From Isurus oxyrinchus (taxonomy: Eukaryota), in the NCBI GenBank assembly GCA_026770705.1, contig JANJGN010000029.1, forward strand, positions 17,298,118 to 17,362,000: a stretch of 63,883 nucleotides of DNA, written 5' to 3'. Shown in pieces: positions 9,275 to 63,770 of this stretch (position 1 is the stretch's first letter; each line of letters starts with the position of its first letter). The position numbers and the translations under genes were made by a program. The notes under the pieces are model-generated. The model made no database searches. It was given only the letters and a program-made list of their open reading frames with translations, and had not been told where the DNA came from.

Positions 9275-10024
9275 GTATTCACTGCTCCCAATGCAGTCTA
9301 CTGTATGTTGGGGAGACTAAACAAAGACTGAGTGACCACTTTGCTGAATACCTTTGCTCAGTCCACAAGCATGACCCAGACCTCCTTGTCGCTTGCCATT
9401 TCAACTCACCATCTTGCTCCCATACCCACAGCCCATCCTTGGCCTGCTGCAATGTTCTAGTGAAGCCCAAAGCAAACTGGAGAAACAGCAACTCATCTTC
9501 CAATTAAGCATTTTACAGCCTTCCAGGCTTAACATTGAGTTCAACATATTCAGACCATGAACTTTATCCTCCATCTTTACCCCCTTTTTAATCCAGTTTC
9601 ATTTTTTAATTCTTTCCCCCAACCTCCACATGGCCATCTGTCACTTGTTCTTATGTTTTGCTTTTGCAGAGTGCAACCTTGTTCTGACCCTTGTTCTGCT
9701 ATGAACATATTCTGCTTTCTTATCTTTAAGCCACTATCAACACCGCCTTTAGTCTTTAACACTCTCTTTGCCTGTGCCCATGACATCTTTGTCAAATTTC
9801 TCCTGAGCTCCCACCTATCCTTGACCTTCTATTTTGCTCCACCCCCTCTGAAACAGTATAACATCTATCACATTTCTACCTCTCTTTAGCTCTGAAGAGT
9901 CGTACAGGCTTGAAATGTTAACTGTTTCTCTTTCCACAGATGCTGCCACACTTGCTGAGTTTTTCCAGCATTTTCAGTTTTTATTTCAGATCTCCAACAT
10001 CCACAGTATTTTGCTTTTATCTTA
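9275..10024 (+). mobile_element. 5'-truncated Penelope-like element (GIY-YIG end plus 3' tail)
   Basis: CIHCSQCSLLYVGETKQRLSDHFAE remnant; same tail as other copies; imperfect TSD AGGGTTCACGCT / GGGGTTCACACT. Confidence 0.85.
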
Positions 10025-13135: not shown

Positions 13136-15167
13136 CGCACCCCCCACTTCCTTCAAAGAAGTTTAGAATAAATCTCCAATGAAACAGCATTTGGTAGAAA
13201 TACGCAGCAAGGTCCGCGTAAAGGGTGGAAAAATACAAGTTAACCTTTAGAGTGCAGACCCTCAATCAGGACATTTACTTATATTTTTTACGACTGAATT
13301 CTCTGTAATGAGAGAGAACTTTGCAAAAAGTTTACAGGCTCGATTATCTGACTTTGTCAAGAATTACATAGAATATGTTTTTTTTTCCATTTTCTGCTGA
13401 AACGTCATCAGGCATACCTAAAAATTAGGTGTCAACTTGGTGAAGCTACAACGCAGGACAACTTGCTTGTCAAACAGCGGAAACAGCATGCAATAGTCAG
13501 AGCTAAGCCATTCACAATCAACCGTTCAGATCTAAGCTCCGCACTTCTGCTACATCCAGTCCTGAATAGTGGTGGACAATTAAACAACTCACTGGAGGAG
13601 GGGGCTCCACAAATATCCCCACCCTCAATGATGAGGGAGCCCAGCACAGCAGTACAAAAGACAAGGTTGAATCATTTGCAGCCATCTTCAGCCAGAAGTG
13701 CCTAGTGGATGATCCATCTTGGCCTCCTGCTGAGGTCCCCAGCACCACAGATACCTGTCTTCAACCAGTTTGATTCACTCCATGTGTTATCAAGAAACAG
13801 TTGAAGGCACTGGATACTGCAAAGGCTATGGGCCCTGACAACATTCAAGCAATAGTACCGAAGACTTGTGCTCCAGAACTGGCCACACACTTAGTCAAGC
13901 TGTTCCAGTATAGCTACAACACTAGCTTCTACCTGGCAATGTGAAAAATTATGCAGGTATGTCCTTTCTACAAAAAGCAGGACAAATCTAACCTGACTAA
14001 TTATCGCCCCATCAGCCTAATCTCGATCATGAGAAAAATTGATGGAAAGTGTTGTCAACAGTGCTATCAAGCAGCACTTACTCAGCAAAAACCTGCTCAC
14101 TGATGCTCAGCTTGGGTTCTGCCAAGGCCACTCAGCTACTAACCACATTACAACCTTGGTCCAAACATGGACAAAAAAGCTGAACTCAAGTGGTGATGTG
14201 AGAGTGACTGCCCTGGATATCCAGTCAGCATTTGACCAAATATGGCATCAAGGAGACCTAGCAAAACTGAATTCAATGAGAATCAGAGGAAAACTCTCCA
14301 CTGATTGGCATCATGCCTAGCTCAAAGGAAGATGGTTGTTGTTGTTGGAGATCAGTCATCTCAGTCCCGGGACATCACTGCAGGAGTTCCTCAGGGTAAT
14401 GTCCTAGGCCCAAACATTGTTTCATCAATGACCTTCCTTCCATCATAAGGTCAATAGTGGGGATGTTCACTGATGATTGCGCAATGCATCATTCACAACT
14501 CCTCAGATACTGAAGCAGTCCATGTCCAAATACAGCAAGACCTGCCCATACTGATAAGTGACAAGTAACATTCATGCCACAGAAGTGCCAAACAACAAAG
14601 GTCTTCAACAACAGAGATTTTAACTATCTCCCATTGACACACAATGGCATTAACATCTCTGAATCCGCCACTATCAACATCCTGGGGGTTATCGTTGACC
14701 ATAAACTGAATTTGGACCAGTTTAAACTAGAATGGCAGGGGGATGGGAACCTGAGCAGGGAACAGAGGAGCGGGAAACAAGGATAGAAACGAAAGAAAAG
14801 TAAGAAACAAAACTGGAAGGCAGAAAAAAACAAGAGCGTAAAACAAATGAGGACATAGTGCAAAATAAAGCTAAGATGACTATTGGGGTTAAAAAGACAA
14901 GTCTAAAGGCTTTGTATCTTAATGCGCAGAGCATTCGCAATACGGTAGATGAATTAACAGCACAAATAGATATAAACAGCTATGACATAGTTGCAATGAC
15001 AGAGATATGGCTGCAGGGTGACCAAGGATGGGAACTGAACATCTAGGGGTATTCAATATTTAGGAAGGACAGACAAATAGGGAAAGGAGATGGGGTAGCA
15101 CTGTTAGTAAAGGATCAATGCATTAGTGAGGAAAGATATTGGCTCAGAAAATCATGATGTGGAATCT

Positions 15168-15254
15168 AGAACAAAAACAAAAATACCTGGAAAAACTCAG
15201 CAGGTCATTTTTGCTTTTGTTCTAGATTTCCAGCATCCGCAGTATTTTGCTTTT
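15168..15254. mobile_element. Minimal tail-out Penelope insertion
   Basis: Two opposed 3' tails; 14-bp TSD ATGATGTG(G/A)AATCT at 15154-15167 and 15255-15268. Confidence 0.85.
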
Positions 15255-15591
15255 ATGATGTGAAATCTGTTTAGGTGGACAGAAGAAACACCAAGGGGCA
15301 TTAAACGTTGATGGGGGTTGTTTATAGACCTACAAACAGTAACATAGATGTAATGGGAAGGCATTAAACAGGAAATTAGAGGCACATGCAGTAAGGGTAC
15401 AACTGTAATCATGGGTGACTTTAATCCACAAAAAGATTGGACAAACCAAACTAGCAATGATACTGTGGAGGAGGATTTCCTGGAGTGTATACGTGATGGT
15501 TTTTTTAGACCAATACATTGAGGAACCAACTAGAGAGCAGGCTATCCTATACTGGGTATTGTGCAAAGAGAAAGAATTAATTAACAATCTT

Positions 15592-15693
15592 AAACAAAAA
15601 CAGAATTACCTGGAAAAACTCAGCAGGGTCTGGCAGCATCAGCGGAGAAGAAAAGTGTTGACGTTTCGAGTCCTCATGACCCTTCAACAGAAC
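15592..15693 (-). mobile_element. Single Penelope 3' tail beginning at the hammerhead motif
   Basis: TSD TAACAATCTT (15582-15591, 15694-15703); minus strand starts GTTCTGTTGAAGGGTCATGAGGACTCGAAACGTCAAC. Confidence 0.8.
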
Positions 15694-18267
15694 TAACAAT
15701 CTTGTTGTGTAGGGTCCCTTGGTGAAGAGCAACCATAAAATGACAGAATTATTCATTAGGATGGAGAGTGAAGAAGTTGAATCCGAAACTAGCGCCCTGA
15801 ATCTAAATAAAGGGAACTGCGAGGGTATGAGGCGCGAGTTGACAATGATAGATTGGGGAACCTTACTAAAAGGCTTGACGGTGGATAGGCAATGGCTAAT
15901 ATTTAAGGAGCATATGCATGAATTACAACAATTATTAATTCCTGTCTAGTGCAACAATAAAACAGGAAAGGTGGCTCAACTATGGCTTACAAAAGAAATT
16001 AGGGATAGTATTAGATCCAAAGAGGAGACATATAAAATTGCCAGAAAATGCAGCAAGAGGATTGGGAGCAGTTTAAAATTCAGCAAAAGTGGACAAAATG
16101 ATTGATCAAGAAGGGGAAATGGAGTATGAGAGTAAACTTGCAGGGAACATAAAAACTGACTGTAAAAGCTTCTATAAATATGTGAAGAGAAAAAGATTAG
16201 CAAAGACAAATATAGGTCCCTTACAGTCAGAATCGGGGGAAATTATAATCGGGAACAAAGAAATGGCAGAAGAGTTGAACATATTTTGGTTCTTTCTTCA
16301 CAAAAGAGGATTCAAGTAATTTCCCAGAAATGTTAGGGAACCAAGGGTCGAGTAAGAGGGAGGAATTGAAGAAAATCAGTATTTGCAAAAAAATGGTGCT
16401 AGAGAAATTAATGGGATTAAAGGCTGAAAAATCCGCAGGCCCTGATAATCTACATCCTAGAGCTCTAAAGGAAGTGGCCTTGGAAATATTGGATACATTG
16501 GTGGTTATCTTCCAAAATTCCATAGACTCTGGAGCAGTTCCTACAAATTGGAGGGTGGCAAATGTAACCCCACTATTTATAAAAGGAGGGAGAATAAAAA
16601 CAGAGAATTACAGATCAGTTAGCCTAACATCAGTAGTAGCAAAAATGCTAGAATCTATTATAAAAGATGAGGTAACAGAACACTTGGAAAGCATTAACTG
16701 GATTAGACAAAGACAGCATGGGTTTGTGAAAGGGAAAACATGCTTAACTAATTTACTGGAGTTTATTTGAAGATGTAACTAGTAAAATAGATAAGGGAGA
16801 ACCAGTGGATGTGGTGTATTTGGATTTCAAGAAGGCTTTTGATAAGGTCCCCTATAAGAGGCTAGTGGGCAAAATTAAAGCACATGGGATCGGGGGTAAT
16901 ACACTGGAATGGATTGAGAATTGGTTGACAGACCGGGAACAGAGAGTGGTCAACCTGTGGAGTTTTCTACCACAGAAGCATGTGGAAGCCGGGTCACTGA
17001 GTATATTCAGGAAAAAAATTGATACATTTTTGGATATTAGGGAACTCAAGGGGTATGGAGAGAAAGCAGGAATATGACATTGAGATAGAGGATCAGCCAT
17101 GATCATATTGAATGGCACAGCAGGCTCGAAGGGCCAAAAGGCCTACTCCTGCTCCTAGTTTCTATGTGTCTATATAAATACCGTAGCTACAAGAGCAGGT
17201 CAGAGGCTGGTAATTCTGCAGAGGAGTAACTCACCTCCTGAATCCTCAAAGCCTGTCCACCATTTACAAAGCACAAAGCAGGACTGCAATGGAATACTCC
17301 CCACTTGCTTGGATTAGTGCAGCTGCAACAACACTAAAGAAGTTTGACACCATCCAGGACAAAGCAACCCATTTGACTGGCACCCCATCCACAAACATTT
17401 ACTCCCTCTCCCACCGGCAAACAGTGGCAGCAGTGTATACCGTCTGCACTGCTGCAATTCACCAAGGCTCCTTCGACAGCACCTTCCAAACCCGTGACCT
17501 GTACCACCTAGAAGGACAAGGGCAGCAGATACATGGGACCACCACCACCTGCAAGTTCCCCTCCAAGTCACTCACCATCCTGACTTGGAACTATATCACC
17601 GTTCCTTCACTGTTGCTGGATCAAAATCCTGGAACTCCCTTCTTAACAGCGCTATGGGTGTTTCTCCAGCACATGGATCCAGCAGTTCAAGAAGGTGGCT
17701 TACTAGCACCTTCTCAAGGGCAATTAGGGATGGGCAATAAATGCTGGCTTAGCCAGCGAAGCCCACACCCCATCAATGAATTTTTAAAAAGATGGAGTTA
17801 AATGCAGGCTCTCACTGTGCCAAACAAATGGCAGAAAGGATTGAGGTGCTGAATGGTCTACTTCCGCTCCTTTGTTTCTTAGTTATCAATAGAACAGAAC
17901 AGAGCTTCATCCGTTAACAAGCAAAGGGAAGAGTTATTTTGCAGGAAGGAGTCTGGGAGGACTTAAAGATAGCTAGCCACCAATCTCAGCGCTGCAAACC
18001 AGAACTATTCATCACCGATTTGTGTGAACAGTATTTGCGTTTTGAAGCATCTGTTTTACGGGTAGCAAATAGAGGCATACCGATGTGGATTGGTTGTTTT
18101 TCAGGTAGACTCAGTATGAATTAATCCCCAAACGCAAGATTGAAAGTAAACTTATATTCCTACAATGTCTTTTCTGTCAAATCATGTAAATAATTAATAA
18201 ATCATGAAAGAATATTTTCTGTCATGTATTTCTTTTTGAAAAGATACTTTGTTGGGAAACCTACTCT

Positions 18268-18680: not shown

Positions 18681-18732
18681 AAATCCTAATCTTTCTTTTA
18701 CTATCTGAGGTCAGTCTTGGTTCTGCTCTTGA

Positions 18733-19069
18733 AATAAAAACAGAAAATGCTGGAAAAACTCAGCAGGTCTGACAGCATCTGTGGAGAGAGAAACAGAGTT
18801 AACATTTCGAGTCTGTATGACTCTTCTTCAGAGCTAAAGAGAAGTAGAAATGTGATTAAATTTATACTGTTTAAGCGGGTAGAGCAGGTGAAGCTGGATA
18901 GAAGATCAACGATAGGTGGGGGCTAAGGAGAGATGGACAGAGATGTCATACGGACTTGAAACGTTAACTCTGTTTCTCTCTCCACAAGTGCTGTCAGACC
19001 TGCTGAGCTTTTCCAGCATTTTCTGTTTTTAATTCAGATTTCTGGCATCTGCAGTATTTTGCTTTTATC
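18733..19069. mobile_element. Tail-out Penelope insertion (older subfamily)
   Basis: Opposed tails; TSD TTCTGCTC(T/C)TGA at 18721-18732 and 19070-19081. Confidence 0.8.
18797..18835 (-). ncRNA. Minimal type I hammerhead ribozyme-like motif (canonical CUGAAGA core)
   Basis: AGCU-CUGAAGA-A-GAGUC AUACA GACUC-GAAA-UG-UU-AACU. Confidence 0.65.
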
Positions 19070-20304: not shown

Positions 20305-20905
20305 AAATAAAAGCAAAAAACTGCAGATGCTGGAAATCCAAAACAAAAACAAAAATACCTGGAAAAACTCAGCAGGTCTGACAGCATTTGTGGAGAGGAA
20401 CACAGTTAACGTTTCGAGTCTGTATGACTCTAAGAGCTAAGGAAAAATAGAAAAGAGGTGAAATATAAGCTGGTTTAAGGTGGAGGGGGACAAGTAGAGC
20501 TGGATAGAGGGCCAGTGATAGGTGGAGATAGCCACAAGATGTCATAGACAAAAGGACAAAGAGGTGTTGAAGGTGGTGATATTATCTAAGGAATGTGCTA
20601 ATTAAGGGTAGAAAGCAGGACGAGCAAGGTACAGATAGCTCTAGGGGTGGGGTGGGGGGGAAGGGAATGAAATAGGCTAAAAGGTAGAGATAAAACAATG
20701 GATGGAAGCAAAATAAGAGACAAGCAGCAGGTCCGACAGCATCTGCAGAGAGGAACACAGCCAGTTTCGAGTCCGAATGACTCCAGCTCGGACTCGAAAC
20801 ATTAACTGTATTCCTCTCCGCAGACGCTATCGGACCTGCTGAGTTTTTCCAGGTATTTTTGTTTTTGTTCTAGATTTCCAGCATCCGCAGTATTTTGCTG
20901 TTATC
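20305..20905. mobile_element. Penelope 3' region (minus, ~20305-20710) next to a small palindromic tail insertion (20728-20905)
   Basis: The second insertion has TSD TAAGAGACAAGCAG at 20714-20727 and 20906-20919. Confidence 0.8.
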
Positions 20906-21202
20906 TAAGAGACAAGCAGGTTCGATTCATTGTGGGCAGGGTCATTGTTAGGGTGGAGGTTTAGACAAAGTCATTATCAGCCACTGACACATGCGGAACA
21001 GCGTAAACGGCCTGAGATCTGTTTCAGCTGCAAAAAACACACCACCCAAAGAGAGAACATTAACCAAGCAATCAAGAGACAAAGCTAGAGAACACACTGG
21101 ACAGTGACTTGGCAGTGACATACGTAAAGAATGTAGACATTGCCCTCTTGTGACAGAACTCAGCCAGCAGCTCAACTCTCAAGCAGGAACTCCCTCTATC
21201 AG

Positions 21203-21304
21203 AACAAAAACAGAAACAGAAATACCTGGAAAAACTCAGCAGGTCTGGCAGCATCGGCGGAGAAGAGTCAGTTGACGTTTTGAGTTATTATCTTTGTTTT
21301 TATT
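21203..21304. mobile_element. Penelope tail insertion with a vestigial opposite tail
   Basis: TSD TCCC(T/C)CTATCAG at 21191-21202 and 21305-21316. Confidence 0.7.
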
Positions 21305-29830: not shown

Positions 29831-32539
29831 CAGAGCGGAGTGGGGCTGTAAGGAGCAGAGCGGGGCTGTGAAGAGTGAGATTTCCACGAGCAGAGCGGGG
29901 CTGCAAAGAGCGAGGCTTTGGTGAGCAGAGCGGGGCTTAAATTTAAGAAAGTAGTCTTTTAATTACAAACAAAGAAAAAGTATGACAAAGGAACTCAGTC
30001 CTGTGTGTTGTGTGGTCTGCAGCATGTGGGATTTCTTAGACACTCCTTGCAGTCTGGAAGTACCACTGGCTTGACCAGCTTGACCAACAGGTTTTGGAGG
30101 TTTTGGTACTCAGGAAAATCCCAGAGTGCATCTCACTCAAGAATCGTTTTTCTGTGTTGGAAAATGGTGAGGGTGAAGGTTCCTCTGGAGAGTGCAGCCA
30201 GAGCCAAGATCACGTTGCAGCTGCACAAGGGAGGAGTAAGAGTGCAGGAGCATCTCTTCAGCCACGCAGAGAGTTGTAGGAGACTCAATAGTGAGGGGTA
30301 AAGACAGGCACTTCTGCAGTGTCGACGTGACTCCAGGATGGTGTGTTGCCCCCCCCTGGTGCCATGGTCAAGGATTCGCAGAACGGTTGCAGGGCACTCT
30401 GAAGGGGGAGAGCAAACAGTCAAAGGTCTTGGTTCACATTGGTACTGACGACATAGGTAGAAAGAGGGATGAAGTCCTGCAACAAGAATTTAGGGAGCTG
30501 GATTAAAAAGCAGGACCTCAAGGGTTGTAATCTCTGGGTTACTCCCTGTGCCACATGCTACTGAGTATTGGAGTAGGAGGATAGAGAGGATGAATGCGTG
30601 GCTGAAGAGATGGTGCAGGAGGGAAGGCTTTCGTTTTCTGGATCACTGGGTCTGTTTCTGGCGAAGGTGGGGCCTGTAGAAGTCGGACGGGTTACACCTG
30701 AACCAGAACGGGACCAACATCTTGCAGTCAGATTTGCTAGTGCTGTTTGGGGGAGTTTAAAATAATTTGGCAGGGGGATGGGACACAGAGTGGAGGTACA
30801 GTTGGGGGTAATGCACAGCCAAATATAGAAGAGAAACTAAGTCAGTCTGGAAGGCAGAGCAAGTATAAACCTGTTAAGGCACAAGGGAATAATGCAAGGC
30901 TGGAGTGTATCTATTTTAACGCAAGGAGTCTTACAAGTAAGGCAGATGAATTGAGGGCGTTGATTAACAAATGGAAATGAGATACTGTTGTTATCATAGA
31001 GACATGGCAGCTCAATATTCCAGGGTATAGAATCTTCAGGCATGACAGGGGGTGGTGTAAAAGAGGAGGTGGCCTTGCACTATTGATCAAGGAGTCAATT
31101 ACTGCAGTAAGGAGTGATGGTATCTTAGAAGGTTCCCAAATAGACGTCATATGGGTAGAACTTAAAAACAAAAAGGCAGCAATCACTTTGCTGCGAGTGT
31201 ACTCTAGGCCTCCAAACAATCAAGGGGAAATGGAGGGGCAGATATGTAGGTAAATCTCAGGAAAGAGTAAAAATAATATGGTAACAATATTAGGGGAGTT
31301 CAACTTCTCCAATATTAACTGGGATAGTCTTAGTGTGAAAAGTGAGCTTTTTGAGCCAGCACATAGAAAGTTTTACAAGAGAAGGGGCAGTAGTGGACAT
31401 AATCTTAGGGAATGAAGCTGGGCAAGTGGTAGAACTGTCAATTGGGGAGCATTTAGGAGATAGTAACCATAACTCGGTAAGAATTAAGGTAGTTATGGAA
31501 AAGAACAAAAATGGACTGGAAATAAAGGTCCTGAATTGGGGGAAGGCCGATTTCAATATGATAAGACAGAATCTAGCCAAAGTGGACTGGGACCAGCTAC
31601 TTATAGGAAAGTCTACATCAGAACAGTGGGAGTCATTCAAAAAGGAAATAGTGAGAGTTCAGGGCCAACATGTACCTGTAAAGGTGAAGGGTAGGACCAA
31701 CAAGTCTAGGGAACCCTGGATGTCAAGGGATATAGAGGATTGAGTAAGGAAAAACAGGAGGCTTATGGCACATACAGAGGGCTGAAAACAGCAGAAGCCC
31801 TAGAGGAGTATATAAAGTGGAGGGGGTACTTAAAAAAGTAATTAGGAGAGCAAAGAGGGGGCATGAAAAAACACTGGGAAGATAAAGGAAAATCTCAAGG
31901 CATTTTATTAATACATTAAAGGATAACCAGGGAAAGAGTAGGGCCAATTAGGGACCAAAGTGCCAATCTGTGTGTGGAGCCGGAGGACGTAGGTGAGGTT
32001 TTGAATGATTACTTTTCATCTGTGTTAACTATGGAGAAGGACGATGTAGGTGTAGAAATCAGAGAGGGGGACTGTGATATACTTGAACAAATTAACATTG
32101 AAAGGGAGGAAGTGTTAGCAGTTTTAGCAGGCTTAAAAGTGGATAAATCCCTAGGCCCAGATGGGATGTATCACAGGCTGCTATGTGAGACAAGGGAGGA
32201 GATTGCAGGGGCTCTGACACTAATTTTCAAATCCTCTCTGGCCACAGGAGAGGACTGGTGGACAGCGAATGTGATGTCATTATTCAAGAAGGGTACTAGG
32301 GATAAACCAGGTAATTACAGGCCAGTGAGTCTAACATCAGTGATAGGGATGCTATTGGAAAAAATTCTGAGGGACAAGATTAATCTCCACTTGGAGAGGC
32401 AGGGTTTAATCAGGGATAGTCAGCATAGCTTAGTCAGGGGGAGATCACGCCTAACAAATTTGATTGAATTTTTCGATGAGGTGACTATTTGTGTAGATGA
32501 GGGTAGTGCAGTTGAGATAGGTAACATGGACATCAGTAA

Positions 32540-35460
32540 CAAAAACAGAAATACCTGGAAAAACTCAGTAGGTCTGGCAGCATCGGCGGAGAAGAGTACG
32601 GTTGACATTTCTAGGCCTCATGACCCTTCAGCAGAACTAAGTAAAAATAGGAGAGGGGTAAAATATAAGCTGGTTTAAGGGGGGGGGGGATGGTTGTTGG
32701 GACAAGCAAGCAGTGATAGGAAGAGATAACCAAAAGATATCACAGACAAAAGAACAAAGAGGTGTTGAAGGTGGTGATATTATCTAAAAGAATGTGCTAA
32801 TTAAGAGTAGAGAGCAGGACAAGCAAGGTACAGATAGCTCTAGTGGGGGTGGGGTGAAATAAGACTCAAAGGGCAAAAAAGGTATAGATAAAAGATCGGT
32901 GGAATACATTTAAAAATAATGGAAATAGGTGGGAAAAGAAAAATCTATATAAATTATTGGAAAAAATAAAAAGGAAGGGGGAAGAAACAGAAAGGGGGTG
33001 GGGATGGAGGAGGGAGTTTAAGATCTAAAATTGTTGAACTCAATATTCAGTCCGGAAGGATGTAAGGTACCTAGTCGGAAGATGAGGTCCTGTTCCTCCA
33101 GTTTGCGTTGAGCTTCACTGGAACATTGCAGCAAGCCAAGGACAGACATGTGGGCATGAAAGCAGGGTGGAATGTTGAAATGGCAAGTGACAGGGAGGTC
33201 TGGGTCATGCTTGCGGACAGACCGAAGGTGTTCTGCAAAGCGGTCGCCCAGTCTGCGTTTGGTCTCTCCAATGTAGAGGAAACCGCATTGGGAGCAACGA
33301 ATGCAGTAGACTAAGTGGAAGGAAGTGCAAGTGAAATGCTGCTTCACTTGAAAGGAGTGTTTGGGCCCTTGGACGGTGAGGAGAGAGGAAGTGAAGGGGC
33401 AGGTGTTGCATATCTTGCATTCGCATGGGGAGGTGCCGTAGGAGGGAGTGTGGAGTAGGGGGTGATGGAGGAGTGGACCAGGGTGTCCCGGAGGGAACAA
33501 TCCCTACGGAATGCCGCCAGGGGGGGTGAAGGGGTGAAGGTATGTTTGGTGGTGGCATCATGCTGGAGTTGGCAGAAATGTTGGAGGATAATCCCTTGAA
33601 TGTGGAGGCTGGTGGGGTGATAAGTGAGGACAAGGGGGACCCTACCATGTTTCTGGGAAGAAGGAGAAGGCGTGAGGGCGGATGCACGGGAGATGGGCCG
33701 GACATGGTTGAGGGCCCTGTCAACCACTGTGGGTGGAAAACCTCGGTTAAGGAAGAAGGAGGACATGTCAGAGGAACTGTTTTTGAAAGTAGCATCATCA
33801 GAACAGATGCGACGGAGGCGAAGGAACTGAGAGAATGGGTTGGAGTCCTTACAGGAAGCGGGGTGTGAGGAGCTGTGGTCGAGGTAGCTGTGGGAGTCAG
33901 TAGGCTTGTAATGGATATTGGTGGACAGTCTTTCACCAGAAATTGAGACACAGAGATCAAGGAAGGGAAGGGAAGTGTCAGAGATGGACCATGTGAAAAT
34001 GATGGAGGGGTGGAGATTGGAAGCAAGATTAATACATTTTTCCAGGTCCCGACGAGAGCATGAAGCAGCACCAAAGTAATCATGGATGTACTGGAGAAAG
34101 AGTTGTGGGAGGGGGCCAGAGTAGGACTGGAACAAGGAATGTTCCACATACCCCATAAAGAGACAGGCATAGCTGGGGCCCATGCGGGTACCCATAGCCA
34201 CACCTTTTATTTGGAGGAAGTGAGAGGAGTTGAAGGAGAAATTGTTCAGCGTGAGAACAAGTTCAGCCAGACGGAGGAGAGTAGTGGTGGATGGGGATTG
34301 TTCAGGCCTCTGTTCGAGGAAGAAGCAGAGAGCCCTCAGACCATCCTGGTGGGGGATGGAGGTGTAGAGGGATTGGACGTCCATGGTGAAGAGGAGGCGG
34401 TTGGGGCCAGGGAACTGGAAATTGTTGATGTGACGCAAGGTGTCAGAGGAATCATGGATGTAGGTGGGAAGGGACTGAACAAGGGGAGAGAGAAGGGAGT
34501 CAAGATAGCGAGAAATGAGTTCTGTGGGGCAGGAACAGGCTGACACGATCGGTCTACTGGGACAGTCCTGTTTGTGGATTTTGGGTAGGAGGTAGAAGCG
34601 GGCTGTCCGACGTTGGGGGACTATCAGGTTGGAAGCTGGGGAAGGAAGATCTCCAGAGGAGATGAGGTCAGTGACAGTCCTGGAAACAATGGCTTGATGT
34701 TCAGTGGTGGGGTCATGGTCCAGAGAGAGGTAGGAGGAAATGTCTGCGAGTTGACACTCAGCCTCCGCGAGGTAGAGGTCTGTGCGCCAGACAGCAGCAG
34801 CACCACCCTTGTCAGTGGGTTTGATGAGAATGTTAGGGTTGGACCTGAGAGAACAGAGTGTAGTAAGTTCAGAGAGAGACAGGTTAGAATGGGTGAGTGG
34901 AGCAGAGAAATTGAGACGACTAATTTCATGCCAACAGCTCTCAATGAAAAGATCAAGAGAAGGTAAGAATCCAGAGGGAGGGGTCCAGGTGGAGAGAAAA
35001 TATTGGAGGTGGGTAAAAGGATCCGTTGAACAGGGAGAGGACTCCTGCCCAAAGAAGTGAGCACGGAGACGAAGGCGGCGGAAGGAGAGTTCAGCATTGT
35101 GCCGAGCCCGAAATTCATTGGGATGAGGGCATAAGGGTATGAAACTAAATCCTTTGCTGAGCACTGAACATTCAGCGTCGGAGAGAGGAAGGTTAGGGGG
35201 TATAGTGAATACACGGCCGGGGCTGAGATTGGAAGATGGGGTGGGGACGGAGGGACAGGCAGGGGTGGAGGGTCCTGGATGGGTGTTGGTGTCGATGAGT
35301 TGTTAGAGCTTGCGTTCCTTAGCACTTGAGAGAAAGAGAAAAAGTTTCTTGGTGAGGCGTCGGATGAGACGAAGATTAAAATGAAACTGGGGGCACACGC
35401 AGCTTTGAAAAAGGGTACGGCAGTGCTGCTGGAGGGAGAGGTCAAGTGTGTTCATATAGG
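32540..35460 (-). mobile_element. Penelope-like retroelement, left arm of a palindrome (RT + GIY-YIG endonuclease, frameshifted)
   Basis: ORF 33344-35164 has PLE RT motifs (DKGG, FYLLPKIHK, DVQSLYTSI, GVAMGTRMGPSYA); ORF 33018-33500 has GIY-YIG (LVYCIRCSQCGFLYIGETKRRLGDRFAEH). Confidence 0.93.
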
Positions 35461-37846
35461 TCGCACCTTTTTTCAAAGCTGCGCGTGCCCTCAGTTTCAC
35501 CTTATTCTTCGTCTCATCCGACACCTCAACAAGAAACTTTTTCTCTTTCTCTCAAGTGCTAAGGAAGGCAAGCTCCAACAACTCATTGACACCAACACCC
35601 ATCTAGGGCCCTCCACTCTTCCCTGTCCCTCCGTCCCCACCCCATTTTCCAATCCCAGCCCCAGCTGTGTATTCACTATACCCCCTGACCTTCCCCTCTC
35701 TGACGCTGAACATTCAGTGCTCAGCAAAGGACTTAATTTCATACCCTTAAGCCCTCACCTCAATGAATTTCGGGCTCGGCACAATGCTGAACTCTTCTTC
35801 TGGCGTCTTCGTCTCTGTGCTCACTTCTTTGGGCAGGAGTCCTCTCCCCGTTCAATGGATCCTTTTACCCACCTCCAATATTCTCCCTCCACCTGGACCC
35901 CTCCCTCTGGATTCTTACCTTCTCTTAATCTTTTCATTGAGAACTGTTGGTGTGACATTAATCGTCTCAATTTCTCTGCTCCTCTCATCCATTCTAACCT
36001 GTCTCTCTCTGAACTTACTGCACTCCGTTCTCTCAGGTCCAACCCTAACATTCTCATCAAACCTGCTGGCAAGGGTGGTGCTGTTGTTGTCTAACCCTCT
36101 CACATCCTCCAAATAAAAGGTGTGGCTATGGGTACCCACATGGGCCCCAGCTATGCCTGTCTCTTTATGGGGTATGTGGAACATTCCTTGTTCCAGTCCT
36201 ACTCTGGCCCCCTCCCACAACTCTTTCTCCAGTACATCCATGATTACTTTGGTGCTGCTTCATGCTCTCGTCGGGACCTGAAAAAATTTATTAATTTTGC
36301 TTTTAATCTCCACCCCTCCATCATTTTCACTTGGTTCATCTCGATACTTCCCTTCCCTTCCTTGACCTCTCTGTCTCAATATCTGGTGATAGACTGTCCA
36401 CCAATATCCATTACAAGCCTACCGACTCCCACAGCTACCTCAACTACAGCTCCTCACACCCCGCTTCCTGTAAGGACTCCATCCCATTCCCTCAGTTCCT
36501 TTGCCTCCGTCGTATCTGTTCCGATGATGCTACGTTCAATAACAGTTTCTCTGACATGTCCTCCTTCTTCCATAATCGAGGTTTTCCACCCACGGTTGTT
36601 GACAGGGCCCTCAACCGTGTCCGGCCCATCTCCCGTGCATCCGCCCTCACGCCTTCTCCTCCCTCCCAGAAACATGATAGGGTCCCCCTTGTCCTCACTT
36701 ATCACCCCACCAGCCTCCGCATTCAAAGGATCATCCTCCGCCATTTCTGCCAACTCCAGCATGATGCCACCACCAAACACATCTTCCCTTCACCCACCCC
36801 CAGCGGCATTCCGTAGGGATTGTTCCTTCCATGACACCCTGGTCCACTCCTCCATCACTCCTTACTCCTCAACCCCCTCCTACGGCACCTCCCCATGCGA
36901 ATGCAAGATATGCAACACCTTCCCCTTCACTTCCTCTCTCTTCACCGTCCAATGGCCCAAAAACTCCTTTCAAGTGAAGCAGCATTTCACTTGCACTTCC
37001 TTCAACTTAGTCTACTGCATTTGTTGCTCCCAATGCGGTTTCCTCTACATTGGAGAGACCAAACGCAGACTGGGTGACCGCTTTGCAGAACACCTTCGGC
37101 CTGTCCGCAAGCATGACCCAGACCTCCCTGTCGCTTGCCATTTCAACATTCCACCCTGCTCTCATGCCCACATGTCTGTCCTTGGCTTGCTGCATTGTTC
37201 CAGTGAAGCTCAACGCAAACTGGAGGAACAGCACCTCATCTTCCGACTAGGCACCTTACAGCCTTCTGGACTGAACATTGAGTTCAACAATTTTAGATCT
37301 TGAACTCCCTCCTCCATCCCCACCCCCTTTCTGTTTCTTCCCCCTCTTTTTTATTTTTTCCAATAATTTATATAGATTTTTCTTTTCCCACCTATTTCCA
37401 TTATTTTTAAATGTATTCCACCGATCTTTTATCTATACCTTTTTTGCCCTTTTAGTCTTATTTCACCCCACCCCCACTAGAGCTATCTGTACCTTGTGTA
37501 TCCTGCTATCCACTCTTAATTAGCACATTCATTTAGATAATATCACCGCCTTCAACACCTCTTTGTTCTTTTGTCTGTGATATCTTTTGGTTATCTCCTC
37601 CTATCACTGCTTGCTTGTCCCAACAACCACCACCCTCCCCCCTCCCCTTCCCCCTCCCCCCCCCTTCCCCCTTTAAATCAGCTTATATTTCACCCCTTTC
37701 CTATTTTTACTTATTACTGTTGCAGGATCATGAGGACTCGAAAGGTCAACTGTACTCTTCTCCGTCGATGCTGTCAGACCTGCTGAGTTTTTCCGGGTAT
37801 TTCTGCTTTTGTTTTGGATTTCCAGCATCTGCAGTTTTTTGTTTTT
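35461..37846 (+). mobile_element. Penelope-like retroelement, right arm of the palindrome, with an internal ~0.56-kb RT deletion
   Basis: Reverse-complement homologue of the left arm; jumps from GKGGAVVV (~36092) directly to the SH.LQIKGVAMG segment; GIY-YIG ends at 37303. Confidence 0.93.
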
Positions 37847-41104: not shown

Positions 41105-42410
41105 CAAGAACAAGAAATAGGACCAGCAGTAGACCATATGGTCCTTCAAGCCTGCTCCGCCATTTAATATGATCATGGCTGATCTTGGCTTCAACTCCAC
41201 TCCCTGCCTGCCTGTTCCCCATATCCTTTGATTCCCTGAGCGATCAAAAATCTGTCTATCCCAGCCTTAAAAATATTCAATGATGGGACCATTCACAACC
41301 CTCTGGGGCAGAGAATTCTGAAGATTTACAACCCTTTGAGTCAAGTAATTTCTCCTAATCTCAGTCCTAAATGATCGGACCCTTATCCTGAGACAGCGCC
41401 CCTGAGTTTTAGATTCCCCGACCAGCGAAACATACTCTCAGCATCCATCCTATCAAGCCCCCTCAGAATTTTGTAGGTGCCAATGAGATCACCTCTCATT
41501 CTACTAAACTCCAGAGAATATGGGCTCAATTTACTCAGCCTCTCATCACAGGATAACTCCCTCATCCCAGGGACCAGTTTAGTGAACCTTCACTGTATTA
41601 CCTGCAGCACAAATGTATCTTTTCCTAAACATGGAAAGAGCAGAACTGCACACAATACTCCAGATGTGGTCTCACCAAAACCCTGTATGACTGTAACAAG
41701 ACTTCTTTGTTCGTCTATTCCAATACCCTTGCAATAGAGGCCAACATGCCATTTGCCTTCCTAATTGCTTGCTGTACCTGTATGCTAACTTTTTGTGTTC
41801 CTTGTGCCAGCACACCCAAGTCTCTTTGAACTTCCACACTTACAAGTTTCTCACCTTTTAAAAAATGTTTTCCTTTTCTATTCTTTTGAACAAAGTGAAT
41901 AATTTCACACTTCCCTACATTATAATCCATCTGCCATCTTAACCTGCTTAAGCTTAACCTGTCGATATCTCTTTGCAACTGCTGTGTCCTCCCCATAGTT
42001 TACCTTTCTACCTAACTTTGTATCATCAGCAAACTTTGATACATTACTCTTTGAAATAAAAATAGAAAATGCTGGAAAAACTCAGCAGGTCTGGCAGCAT
42101 CTGTGATGAGAGAATCAGAGTTAACATTTCAAGTCCATATGACTCTTCTTTAGAGCTACATTAGTCTCTGTCTCTTCATCTAAGTCATTAATATAAATTG
42201 TAAATAGCTGAGGCCCCAGCACCGATCCTTGTGGAACTCCACTATTCACTATCTGCCAACTTGAAAGGTTCCAATTTATGCCTGCTCCCTGCTTCTTATC
42301 TGTTAACCAATCTGCTACCATATTACCTTCAATGTCATGCCTATTAATCTTTTGTGTGGCACCTTATCGAAAGTCTTTTTGGAAATTCAGGTGTACTACA
42401 TGTACTGGTT
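41105..42410 (-). mobile_element. CR1 3' fragment with a Penelope tail (42054-42156) inserted
   Basis: [20 protein letters not shown]; the insertion has TSD TACATTACTCTTTG / TACATTAGTCTCTG. Confidence 0.85.
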
Positions 42411-45595: not shown

Positions 45596-46069
45596 TGTTC
45601 GAGGCTGGGGCACCAGAGCAGATGGAGTTTATCCTGCATCGAACAAGTACTACACATCAACCCTGGTTGATGTTAATGCAGGAAGGAGATTGGGGCAGAC
45701 TGAAATTATTCAATCACTGAGCACGACCATCCCTCCCTTGGATGTGCAAAAAGTAAAAATAGGAACAATAGTAGACCATTGAGCCCCTCGAGCCTGTTCC
45801 ACAATTCATTTCGATCATGGGTGATATTTAACTCCATTTACTCACCTTTGCTTTCTCTGCCTTAACCAATAAAAATATTTCAATCTCGGTCCTGAAAGCA
45901 TCAATTGTCCCCCTACATCCACAGCCTTTTGGGGTGGGGGAAGAGAGTTCCAGATGTTCACCACTCTGTGTCGGAAAAAGCACTTCCCGTTATAATATTA
46001 ATGTAACAAATTACGGAGTTGTCTCAATGCAGCAGGAAGTAATCAGCTGGCTTGCTTCTTCATTTCCAG

Positions 46070-46417
46070 GTTCCACCGTTTTCCTCGCAGCCCCCTCAAA
46101 AGTTCTGCACCTTCCGCGTTCGGGGGTTCCTGGAGGAATATTTGCCCAGCAAGCTGCAAGGCATCAGTTACAGCCCTGCCCTCGCTAGCCGACTCGCAAA
46201 AGAGATGAGCGATGAAATTAAGGAGTTTTCGAAGGGGACTCTGCCGCCCAGATACAAGCTGGTGTGCATTGTGACCCTGGGCGAGAAGAACAATGAGAAT
46301 GTTCTGCTGACCAGCCGTGCTCTCTGGGACTGCTACGCAGACACCTTTGTTTCGCACTGTTATGAGAGCGCTGCCATGTTCGGTGTGGCCAGCATCTTTG
46401 CCTTGTACTGCGAATGA
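46070..46417 (+). CDS. Terminal exon encoding a complete Tctex-1 (dynein light chain, TCTEX1D/DYNLT-type) domain
   Basis: Acceptor TTCTTCATTTCCAG, phase 0. Translation has Tctex1 hallmarks: Y...LAKEMSDEIK, PRYKLVCIVTLGE, SRALWD..D, FGVASIFALYCE-stop. Confidence 0.92.
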   Translation, partial: VPPFSSQPPQKFCTFRVRGFLEEYLPSKLQGISYSPALASRLAKEMSDEIKEFSKGTLPPRYKLVCIVTLGEKNNENVLLTSRALWDCYADTFVSHCYESAAMFGVASIFALYCE

Positions 46418-47720: not shown

Positions 47721-47867
47721 AATTTATTGTCCTGGAATGAAGACTGGGGACTTGCAACAAACAACCTAGGGGATAAAATCACAGGGGAACATTCAAAACC
47801 AAAAGTCTGCATTTGTTTCATTTTTCTTTGAACACGTTCATGAGTTATCTGAGATGGGGAAATAACA

Positions 47868-48142
47868 AAACAAAAACAGAATTACCTGGAAAAACTCAGC
47901 AGGTCTGGCAGCATCGGCGGAGAAGAAAAGAGTTGACGTTTCGAGTCCTCATGACCCTTCGACAGAAGAAAAGAGTTGACGTTTCGAGTCCTCATGACCC
48001 TTCGACAGTTCTGTCGAAGGGTCATGAGGACTCGAAACGTCAACTCTTTTCTTCTCCGCCGATGCTGCCAGACCTGCTGAGTTTTTCCAGGTAATTCTGT
48101 TTTTGTTTTGGATTTCCAGCATCCGCAGTTTTCTTTGTTTTT
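47868..48142. mobile_element. Young palindromic Penelope mini-insertion with three hammerhead motifs
   Basis: Perfect 14-bp TSD ATGGGGAAATAACA (47854-47867, 48143-48156); arms meet at CTTCGACAG-TT-CTGTCGAAG; 43-bp unit duplicated at 47921-47963 and 47964-48006. Confidence 0.92.
48007..48045 (+). ncRNA. Minimal type I hammerhead ribozyme-like motif (core variant CUGUCGA)
   Basis: AGUU-CUGUCGA-A-GGGUC/GACUC stem II-GAAA-CG-UC-AACU; palindromic ACGU in place of stem III, as described for PLE hammerheads. Activity untested. Confidence 0.7.
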
Positions 48143-49579
48143 ATGGGGAAATAACATCTTGCTGGGCTGGGCTGGCAGGTTGGAGGTGGGTGGTTAAATA
48201 ATGAAACCCCCAGGAATACGTCCATCAAGAGTTGGCAACCTAAACGGAGGGCACATTGTGTAATGGCTCATCTTAGACAGACAATTACAAGAGAGGAAAA
48301 ATGGCTAGTGTGGCAAGCTGTAGGTAGTCTAGACAAAATAGAGTTGATGTATTTGATGTCATTTTCTTCCTGTTCATTTTGCTCAGTTGTTCCTGCCTTA
48401 AATTTGCTTCCCAATTTATTTTTCAATGCATAAATGCATTTAAAATATATGCATAAATGCATATTAAAATAAAATCAATTTTGACTATTCCAGATCCACC
48501 CTTTTACCCATTGTTTCTGAGGTTACAGGGTAACTAACTGCATTACATCCCCGCCTGCCTCGACAAACTCCATCCTGAGCCCAGCCTCGATGGGTCACTT
48601 AGGAACTGCACTGAGTTGCACAGACCAGGAAGTTCCTGGGTTCATTAGGCAGTTAGTTCTGTTCGTTGGAGTCGCCCTTGGATTAGGATGGGGGTAAAAG
48701 TCATCCCGGGGTTCCACCCGGGCGCTACTATCCAGTAAGTGCGCCCCCTCTCTTCCCCAGCTGACAGGTACATGTCCAAATGTTGAATGAGAATAGAATT
48801 GAGCCTGATGCATTGTAGACGAACAGTCTACCTTGGATAGGCAGTTGAAGGGAAGTGGCTTAAAGGGGCTTCAGGGTGGACATGAGGGATCAGGATTACT
48901 GTTTGCGTGGAGGATAAACGCCTACATGAATGGCATGTTTTTGTGCTTTCATGATTCTAATTCTATGACCACTGTGGTTTACAGCTGATAAACATCCTGT
49001 GGATGAGTGACTTGAAGGATAAGGCTGGTGTTTATGAGTTGCTGCCTTCAGGAAACGAGGGGAGAAAATAAGGTTGTTTCATTGGAAGAAAATTACTCTA
49101 ATGGCCGTGAGATGAATTATGACAACCAGCACAAGGTGGATGAGGCTTTCATCCACCCAGTTACTATGACACCTATTCCACCCAGCTTGCTCTTGACAGG
49201 GGCCCATGTCAAATACCACGAGCACTTTCCCACTCCGAAACACGACTTTGGACACAGTGGCTATACGTGTGGGGTGGTTTGTTGAGAGTGGCTCTCGGGT
49301 CCTGTACGACTTCAGTGTTGCTGAAGGTCCCAAACCTTATCCTGAATGAGCAGGTTACATGGTTGCAACCTGGACATGCTGGGATGTGTTGGCTGTGGCC
49401 CTGCGTTTCCATTGGCCAAGGCAGAACAGAATCAGACCAAATTATGTAGACTGTCCTCATGGCAACAGGTCACACTGGAGTTATATGCAGCCAATCAAAT
49501 ACATCTCAAACACACAGATTTTAGTTAAGATACCAACAACCTTTGAACACTGCTATAGTTCATAGTAAAGGAAAAAGAG

Positions 49580-63649: not shown

Positions 63650-63770
63650 GGAAAATACTGCGGGATGCTGAAAATCTACAATATTAATAGACAATGCTAG
63701 AAATACTCAGCAGGTCTGGCGTCTGTGGAGAGAGAAACAAAGTTAATGTTTCAGGTCTGTGACATTTCAC
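63650..63770 (-). mobile_element. Old Penelope 3' tail
   Basis: AATACTCAGCAGGTCTGGC..GTGGAGAGAGAAACAAAGTTAATGTTTCAGG matches the other tails. Confidence 0.7.

Follow-up and report, generated by a model that had tools for sequence, protein, structure and literature searches.

What is the near-perfect hairpin at positions 47854-48156 of the window (the whole analysed stretch of 63,883 nucleotides from Isurus oxyrinchus), and how did it get there? An earlier note, made from the letters of this stretch alone, proposed a very young non-autonomous ribozyme element with three hammerhead motifs, two of them in tandem, or else the seed of a retrozyme-like array. The answer depends on what the arms are made of, on whether the structure has moved as a unit, and on whether its hammerheads are likely to work.

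The insert is 275 bp long and lies between the two copies of a perfect 14-bp direct repeat (47854-47867 and 48143-48156), as the note had described. Its two arms meet head to head and are unequal. The left arm (47868-48008, minus strand) is an inverted, tail-less copy of the end of a pseudo-LTR (pLTR) of a Penelope-like element (PLE), recognized from its sequence and from the same arm in the full-length copies L082 and L086. Within it are two exact 43-bp units (47921-47963 and 47964-48006, minus strand) that cover a hammerhead motif and form a tandem repeat found elsewhere in the genome as well; no contig spans this duplication, the contigs fragmenting within the repeat. The right arm lies on the plus strand and consists of a direct copy of the pLTR end as far as its inner, tail-less end site (48011-48109), delimited by comparison with full-length copies and sibling insertions, followed by a 33-bp one-sided tail (48110-48142) as defined in PMC3846280, PMC8557442, and PMC11167929. 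This tail is present on the right arm only. The arms join at 48007-48010, which comprises a 2-base overlap common to both arms plus the 2-nt TT "loop" (48009-48010). The length, the repeat, the exact tandem, and the loop were thus all read correctly from the letters. The inner arms, apparently unmutated to the note, are indeed 100% complementary, but this is not unusual: in 8 of 30 sibling hairpins, both arms are identical to the window's arm over 78 nt.

Is the 14-bp repeat a true target site duplication (TSD)? Contigs from two other sequencing runs (X5 record 18, from another organism, and X16 record 9) carry the 14-mer once and join 47853 directly to 48143. The repeat is therefore a true TSD, and the insertion postdates the split from the organism of X5. 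The last 2 bases of the left TSD copy also match the tail-less end of the element, and the first 2 bases of the right copy also match the element's continuation. The insertion was claimed to be young and indeed is, since it matches many family copies exactly and is missing from the related organism. In run X1, the element was entered from both alleles of a single-nucleotide polymorphism in the flank. X16 carries the same species label as X1 and has the empty site, yet several of its flank changes are common with the other organism's contig; over window positions 47734-48595, it may represent a different lineage or a labeling issue. As to the neighborhood, an open frame at 46043-46417 (plus strand) encodes a Tctex-1 domain (PF03645, E value of 6e-20), with its stop about 1.4 kb upstream of the insertion, and X16 record 9, which is guessed to be RNA, spans the empty site downstream of this frame.

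The parent family is well represented and protein coding. The right arm of the insert corresponds to the final 134 bp of the pLTR of a coding PLE, and in 3.3-kb copies with the layout pLTR-ORF-pLTR, the same arm ends both pLTRs. RVT_1 and GIY-YIG domains were matched in both of the two parental proteins considered, RVT_1 above the Pfam cut-off in one of the two and GIY-YIG below it in both (E value of 6e-4). The endonuclease is preceded by a CX4CXXC linker motif (residue 417 of L079). A CX2-5CXXC motif between reverse transcriptase (RT) and endonuclease is the criterion for Neptune/Nematis-type elements (PMC8557442), and the parent, to judge from this linker, fits that type rather than Penelope/Poseidon. 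A 34-base core of the family has 73,052 exact matches in the genome. The hallmarks of insertion by endonuclease-bearing (EN+) PLEs are all present: a parent with RT plus a GIY-YIG domain at the C terminus, partial tandems together with inverted 5'-truncated copies, and a one-sided tail with a TSD. The layout of the insert is thus a known, common PLE arrangement. The window itself holds about 10 further, diverged pLTR-end copies that belong to related PLE families (9909-10018, 15163-15694, 18732-19066, 20309-21285, 32527-32638, 37717-37846, 42054-42148, and 63654-63752), and at least two of them, at 9.9 and 18.8 kb, keep the canonical A6 core.

Do such hairpins move as units, or are they built anew? 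The TT centre has 1,413 exact matches in the genome. Among the first 30, every one is bounded by TSD-like repeats of 9 to 15 bp, and the tail always lies on one side only, the left in 16 and the right in 14. With the tail on either arm, neither a single fold-back nor one fixed master is a simple source of both polarities, and given this 16-to-14 division, fold-back self-priming was rejected as the only route to the TT centre. A subfamily recognizable by two base changes (2,980 genome matches, of which the first 100 were analysed) makes the point more directly. These 100 include 31 head-to-head pairs whose two arms both carry the marker, at spacings from 64 to 6,252 bp, and no tail-to-tail pair; seven full-length tandems of 3,329 to 3,355 bp are also among them. 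The 17 short pairs have 10 different spacings, and only 2 of the 17 are of the TT type, which excludes a fixed TT master for this subfamily. A single source, then, gives full-length, long inverted, and short hairpin products, and since one subfamily yields many hairpin centres, the hairpins are likely made afresh at each insertion. No second identical 275-bp copy with a different TSD was found in the genome, in a search in which 40 of 125 candidates were scored by BLAST and junction patterns were matched exactly, so that mutated copies such as L005 escape. The mark of fixed-unit mobility, identical copies with different TSDs, was thus not found for the 275-bp insert. With an arm that belongs to a coding PLE as the end of its pLTR, no identical copy found, and centres that vary within one subfamily, the idea of a distinct non-autonomous ribozyme element is not supported. 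No on-topic paper on non-autonomous Penelope inverted repeats in sharks was found in the largely open-access literature searched.

The 5' ends of the family's arms pile up at one edge. Measured from hammerhead nucleotide C3, 36 of 99 arms of the marked subfamily end at -7 to -1, 2 at -52 to -8, and 12 at 0 to +23, and 49 run on beyond -53. (The 99 arms represent one subfamily on one chromosome; 100 were listed, and one was lost on merging identical contexts.) Of the 36 arms ending at -7 to -1, at least 8 were judged by eye to lie outside hairpins, and the overlap at junctions displaces arm ends by 1 to 3 bases. None of the 99 arms starts near the cleavage site (+31), which excludes cleaved RNA as the template. 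The simplest reading, which we infer from the pile-up, is a transcript starting just 5' of the hammerhead, with cDNA from the tail of the first pLTR running off after 100 to 135 nt. Alternatively, the pile-up could arise because RT halts at a small palindrome that occurs naturally there. In the 3' pLTR of L082, the segment between 36 and 5 nt upstream of the core contains, by eye, what we take to be a TATA-like sequence, with an initiator-like one following about 31 nt later at the 5'-end pile-up.

The 43-bp duplication is rare, but it recurs. An exact search for its junction gave 21 matches in 11 places, of which 9 are same-family duplications (the window included), 1 is a chimera that involves another subfamily, and 1 is due to chance; L005 is a tenth 43-bp locus, missed by the exact junction search. 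Other unit lengths are 48 bp (L002, L014, and L027), 49 to 51 bp (3 loci), and 55 bp (5 loci). At least about 21 loci thus bear duplications, with units of 43 to 55 bp and up to 11 units, against 73,052 cores. The duplicated units occur in long and short arms as well as in solo copies, and every one of them starts between -4 and +2 relative to C3. Since the units start at the 5'-end pile-up, RT run-off followed by re-priming is suggested. Such a slip could use a repeat of 4 bases, spaced by 43 nt, in the template, versus one of 2 bases in the finished TT hairpin. At four further loci (L034 to L037), short inverted arms abut the TSD and end about 45 nt downstream of C3, which is the unit's other end and possibly a third internal RT start site; these loci were chosen by similarity to the query and so are not a frequency sample. 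The longest array, L031 (G000:C15:123124189-123124846), consists of eleven tandem 43-bp hammerhead units within one hairpin insertion with normal arms, and L251, L253, and L254 are tandems of 3, 4, and 2 units of 49 to 51 bp. No published account of such a PLE hammerhead duplication was found in the main texts of the largely open-access literature searched.

How might one insertion event produce all of this? Very probably, the hammerhead-plus-tail end of an abundant Neptune-type PLE inserted here recently as a very short head-to-head copy, likely through two RT events at one cut site, with the 43-bp duplication likely due to run-off and re-priming. The PLE transcript would begin 4 to 7 nt upstream of the hammerhead core. 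The endonuclease would make a 14-nt staggered cut, and both 3' ends would prime cDNA internally, at the tail end and at the tail start. Both cDNAs would halt at the RNA 5' end after about 100 to 135 nt and be joined via the 2-base overlap, with either polarity resulting. One cDNA would first slip back 43 nt via the 4-base repeat, thereby recopying the hammerhead, and the end product would be a dead-end DNA hairpin. In vitro, an Anolis PLE cuts and extends both strands and starts reverse transcription at two internal sites bounding the tail, and mutants of its hammerhead insert normally, that is, without hammerhead cleavage (PMC11167929). This is the best explanation of what was observed, namely, the parentage, the TSD, the empty site, the family size, the varied centres, and the 5'-end pile-up; the individual steps are those we infer.

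The strongest competitor accepts the same PLE stump but has the 43-bp duplication arise once the insertion was in place, replication having slipped, or repair having acted, at the centre of the palindrome. Perfect palindromes are unstable, and the arrays do change at the DNA level. In the 11-mer, two changes are common to units 6 and 9, so that this array also evolves as a minisatellite, and the units of L006 have common changes that are absent from the other arm; both observations count against run-off alone. On the other hand, a finished hairpin offers a direct repeat of 2 bases only, duplications are also found in hairpin-less copies (L032, L033, and L251), the 49-bp junctions are joined without any overlap, and every unit starts at the 5'-end pile-up. 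A post-insertion slip is accordingly unlikely, though it deserves to be taken seriously. Between the two origins of the duplication, RT run-off with re-priming is preferred, being by our estimate roughly twice as probable as a later DNA-level slip.

Independent slips also fail to explain a second feature that counts against run-off alone, which is that duplication-bearing hairpins cluster on distal C3 (here the sequence G000:C3, not the nucleotide) and there have a rare centre in common. The cluster at G000:C3:231.2-235.4 Mb includes L179 to L183, L098, and L099; five of its copies have one rare hairpin centre, of which the genome has 12, in different flanks. L187, near the end of C15, is a sixth copy with this centre and has a 55-bp duplication. 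Could tandem-hammerhead hairpins sometimes be copied as units, by secondary retrotransposition or ectopic gene conversion, with the window locus belonging to such a nascent non-autonomous lineage? All five cluster copies with the rare centre are duplicated, L181 and L183 have a further base change in common, and of the 10 element loci that have the 43-bp junction, 4 fall in a stretch of 2.83 Mb (rough chance, 2e-7). The cluster may need a local source element or gene conversion. The window copy, however, has a different centre and no twin was found for it, and the cluster carries tail plus duplication on either arm, with units of 43 or 55 bp, unlike the copies of one master. For the window locus, membership in such a lineage is quite improbable.

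Less probable again is an active ribozyme element, in which the minus-strand tandem would cleave as a dimer and free a 43-nt unit that seeds retrozyme-like arrays. The identification of PLE-type minimal type I hammerheads is borne out by their layout. The most complete, at 48007-48045 on the plus strand (C3 at 48011), was delineated by motif scan and folding and has a 4-bp helix I, a bulged A, a 5-bp helix II, a palindromic ACGU, and a GUC site at 48041, a layout that follows PMC4209133. On the minus strand, the first core occupies 47978-48008 (C3 at 48008, C17 at 47978) and has no helix I, and the second occupies 47935-47965 (C3 at 47965, C17 at 47935) and has a helix I of 2 bp, against the 4 to 5 bp of the minimal type I; the junction has removed the upstream strand. 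Helix II with its bulged base and the palindromic stem III remnant are present. The three claimed motifs therefore exist, but all read CUGUCGA rather than the conserved CUGANGA...GAAA, a U (at 48014 in the plus-strand motif) replacing the conserved A6. Exact matches across the family number 132 with A6 versus 73,052 with U6, the 132 being scattered in the genome, so that a canonical-core subfamily was rejected; in other, more diverged related families, A6 is kept in 9 of 12 motifs at the loci examined. An Rfam scan of the whole window gave no match at the gathering score.

What speaks for activity is the intact palindromic ACGU and GUC, the existence of the 11-unit array, the low dimer activity of minimal PLE hammerheads (PMC4209133), and the proposal that retrozymes derive from pLTRs (10.64898/2026.07.22.740005). 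Against it, every core is A6U. A natural A6C hammerhead is slow (PMC3088659), and no A6U hammerhead was found in the largely open-access literature searched. The estimated secondary structure of the minus-strand cis-dimer is -6.9 kcal/mol, 23 kcal/mol above the best fold at -29.9 kcal/mol, and in a read-through transcript of the whole element, in which the cores are sequestered in a 99-bp hairpin, helix II has a predicted probability of at most 0.012; these energies leave out tertiary contacts and protein help, the latter of which the Anolis hammerhead requires. To this are added the lack of arms starting at the cleavage site and the position of the 11-mer within an ordinary hairpin with normal arms. 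The window hammerheads are predicted to cleave poorly or not at all, the minus-strand dimer self-cleavage suggested in the earlier note is disfavored by the A6U change, the absent outer helix I, and the predicted folds, and an active element at this locus is highly improbable. The inner units of L251 and L253, which keep a 4-bp helix I but have U6, would on these structural grounds be better cis-dimer ribozyme candidates than the window copy. That the duplication is an assembly error at the palindrome, a notion to which the lack of any read or contig spanning it lends itself, is scarcely credible given the same junction at 8 other same-family loci, several of them with diverged units or without a hairpin.

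The locus is thus a real, recent, and ordinary PLE stump with a rare internal stutter, not a new ribozyme element, and in itself it is a dead stub like tens of thousands of others. The statistics of the family are of wider use because they bear on how PLEs insert: (i) the 5'-end pile-up is sharp, (ii) no arms start at the cut site, (iii) tails occur on either arm, and (iv) duplications lie at the same edge. As a clue to how PLEs insert and how hammerhead repeats are born, this pattern is modest, and its predictions can be tested in the existing in vitro PLE system. The success of a U6 family as large as this one suggests that mobility does not depend on strong hammerhead cleavage. A bolder and rather doubtful extension is that the PLE RT stutters at the RNA 5' end, writing arrays of 2 to 11 hammerhead units (some of them 49-bp units with a full helix I) in single insertions, some of which then spread, as on distal C3. 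If true, RT stutter would be a directly observed birth route of retrozyme-like repeats from a PLE whose ribozyme has lost A6 while mobility is kept.

How does the locus compare with known systems? Minimal hammerheads, including close pairs on opposite strands, are described from the pLTRs of metazoan PLEs (PMC4209133). The window family shares with them the 4-bp helix I, the unpaired base between 9 and 10.1, the G10.1-C11.1 pair, the palindromic stem III remnant, the pLTR location, and the nearby opposite-strand pairs. It differs from the hammerheads described there in its U6, its 5-bp helix II, and its tandem cores without a full helix I.

In animals, retrozymes consist of units of about 300 bp arranged in tandem, carry complete type I hammerheads, and have circular RNAs (PMC7229834), and they have been proposed to arise from pLTRs via local amplification, with cleavage in 1 of 9 tested dimers (10.64898/2026.07.22.740005). 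Like these non-LTR retrozymes, the window locus has tandem units that each carry a type I hammerhead motif and that originate from a pLTR. Its unit is 43 bp, versus a typical 300 bp (51 to 972 bp in 10.64898/2026.07.22.740005), and its tandem has a non-canonical core without full helix I, sits in a PLE stump, and belongs to no dispersed family. Retrozymes have at least two consecutive complete hammerheads, and here the tandem units lack both A6 and a full helix I; they form dispersed unit families, and here the 9 same-family junction loci all lie inside PLE ends, in differing surroundings. The "seed of an array" of the earlier note thus fails for the window locus itself, but finds an echo at other loci, as in the 11-mer of this 43-bp unit on another chromosome. 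The L031 and L253 arrays illustrate the proposed first step of retrozyme birth.

The closest relatives are the EN+ PLE insertion units, such as Pen2a_Av of Adineta (PMC3846280; PMC8557442, Fig. 2), which likewise have a head-to-head inverted 5'-truncated copy, a one-sided tail (30 to 40 bp there, 33 bp here), and a TSD, and which also come from parents with RT and C-terminal GIY-YIG domains and form partial tandems. Unlike the units described in these sources, the window insert is extremely short, with no ORF, its ends are fixed at the hammerhead's 5' edge, and it has an internal 43-bp tandem. The Anolis Poseidon element PAc (PMC11167929) belongs to another clade. It resembles what is proposed for the window family in its two adjacent internal RT starts bounding the tail, in the cutting and extension of both strands, and in its uncleaved RNA template; the passages considered of that paper do not describe run-off and re-priming at the 5' end. 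For this last step, the parallel is with R2 elements, whose 5' junctions vary comparably at a defined RNA 5' end, with RT run-off, extra bases, and short overlaps (PMC3774820). R2 duplicates its target ribosomal DNA, whereas here it is the element's own 5' segment that is repeated.
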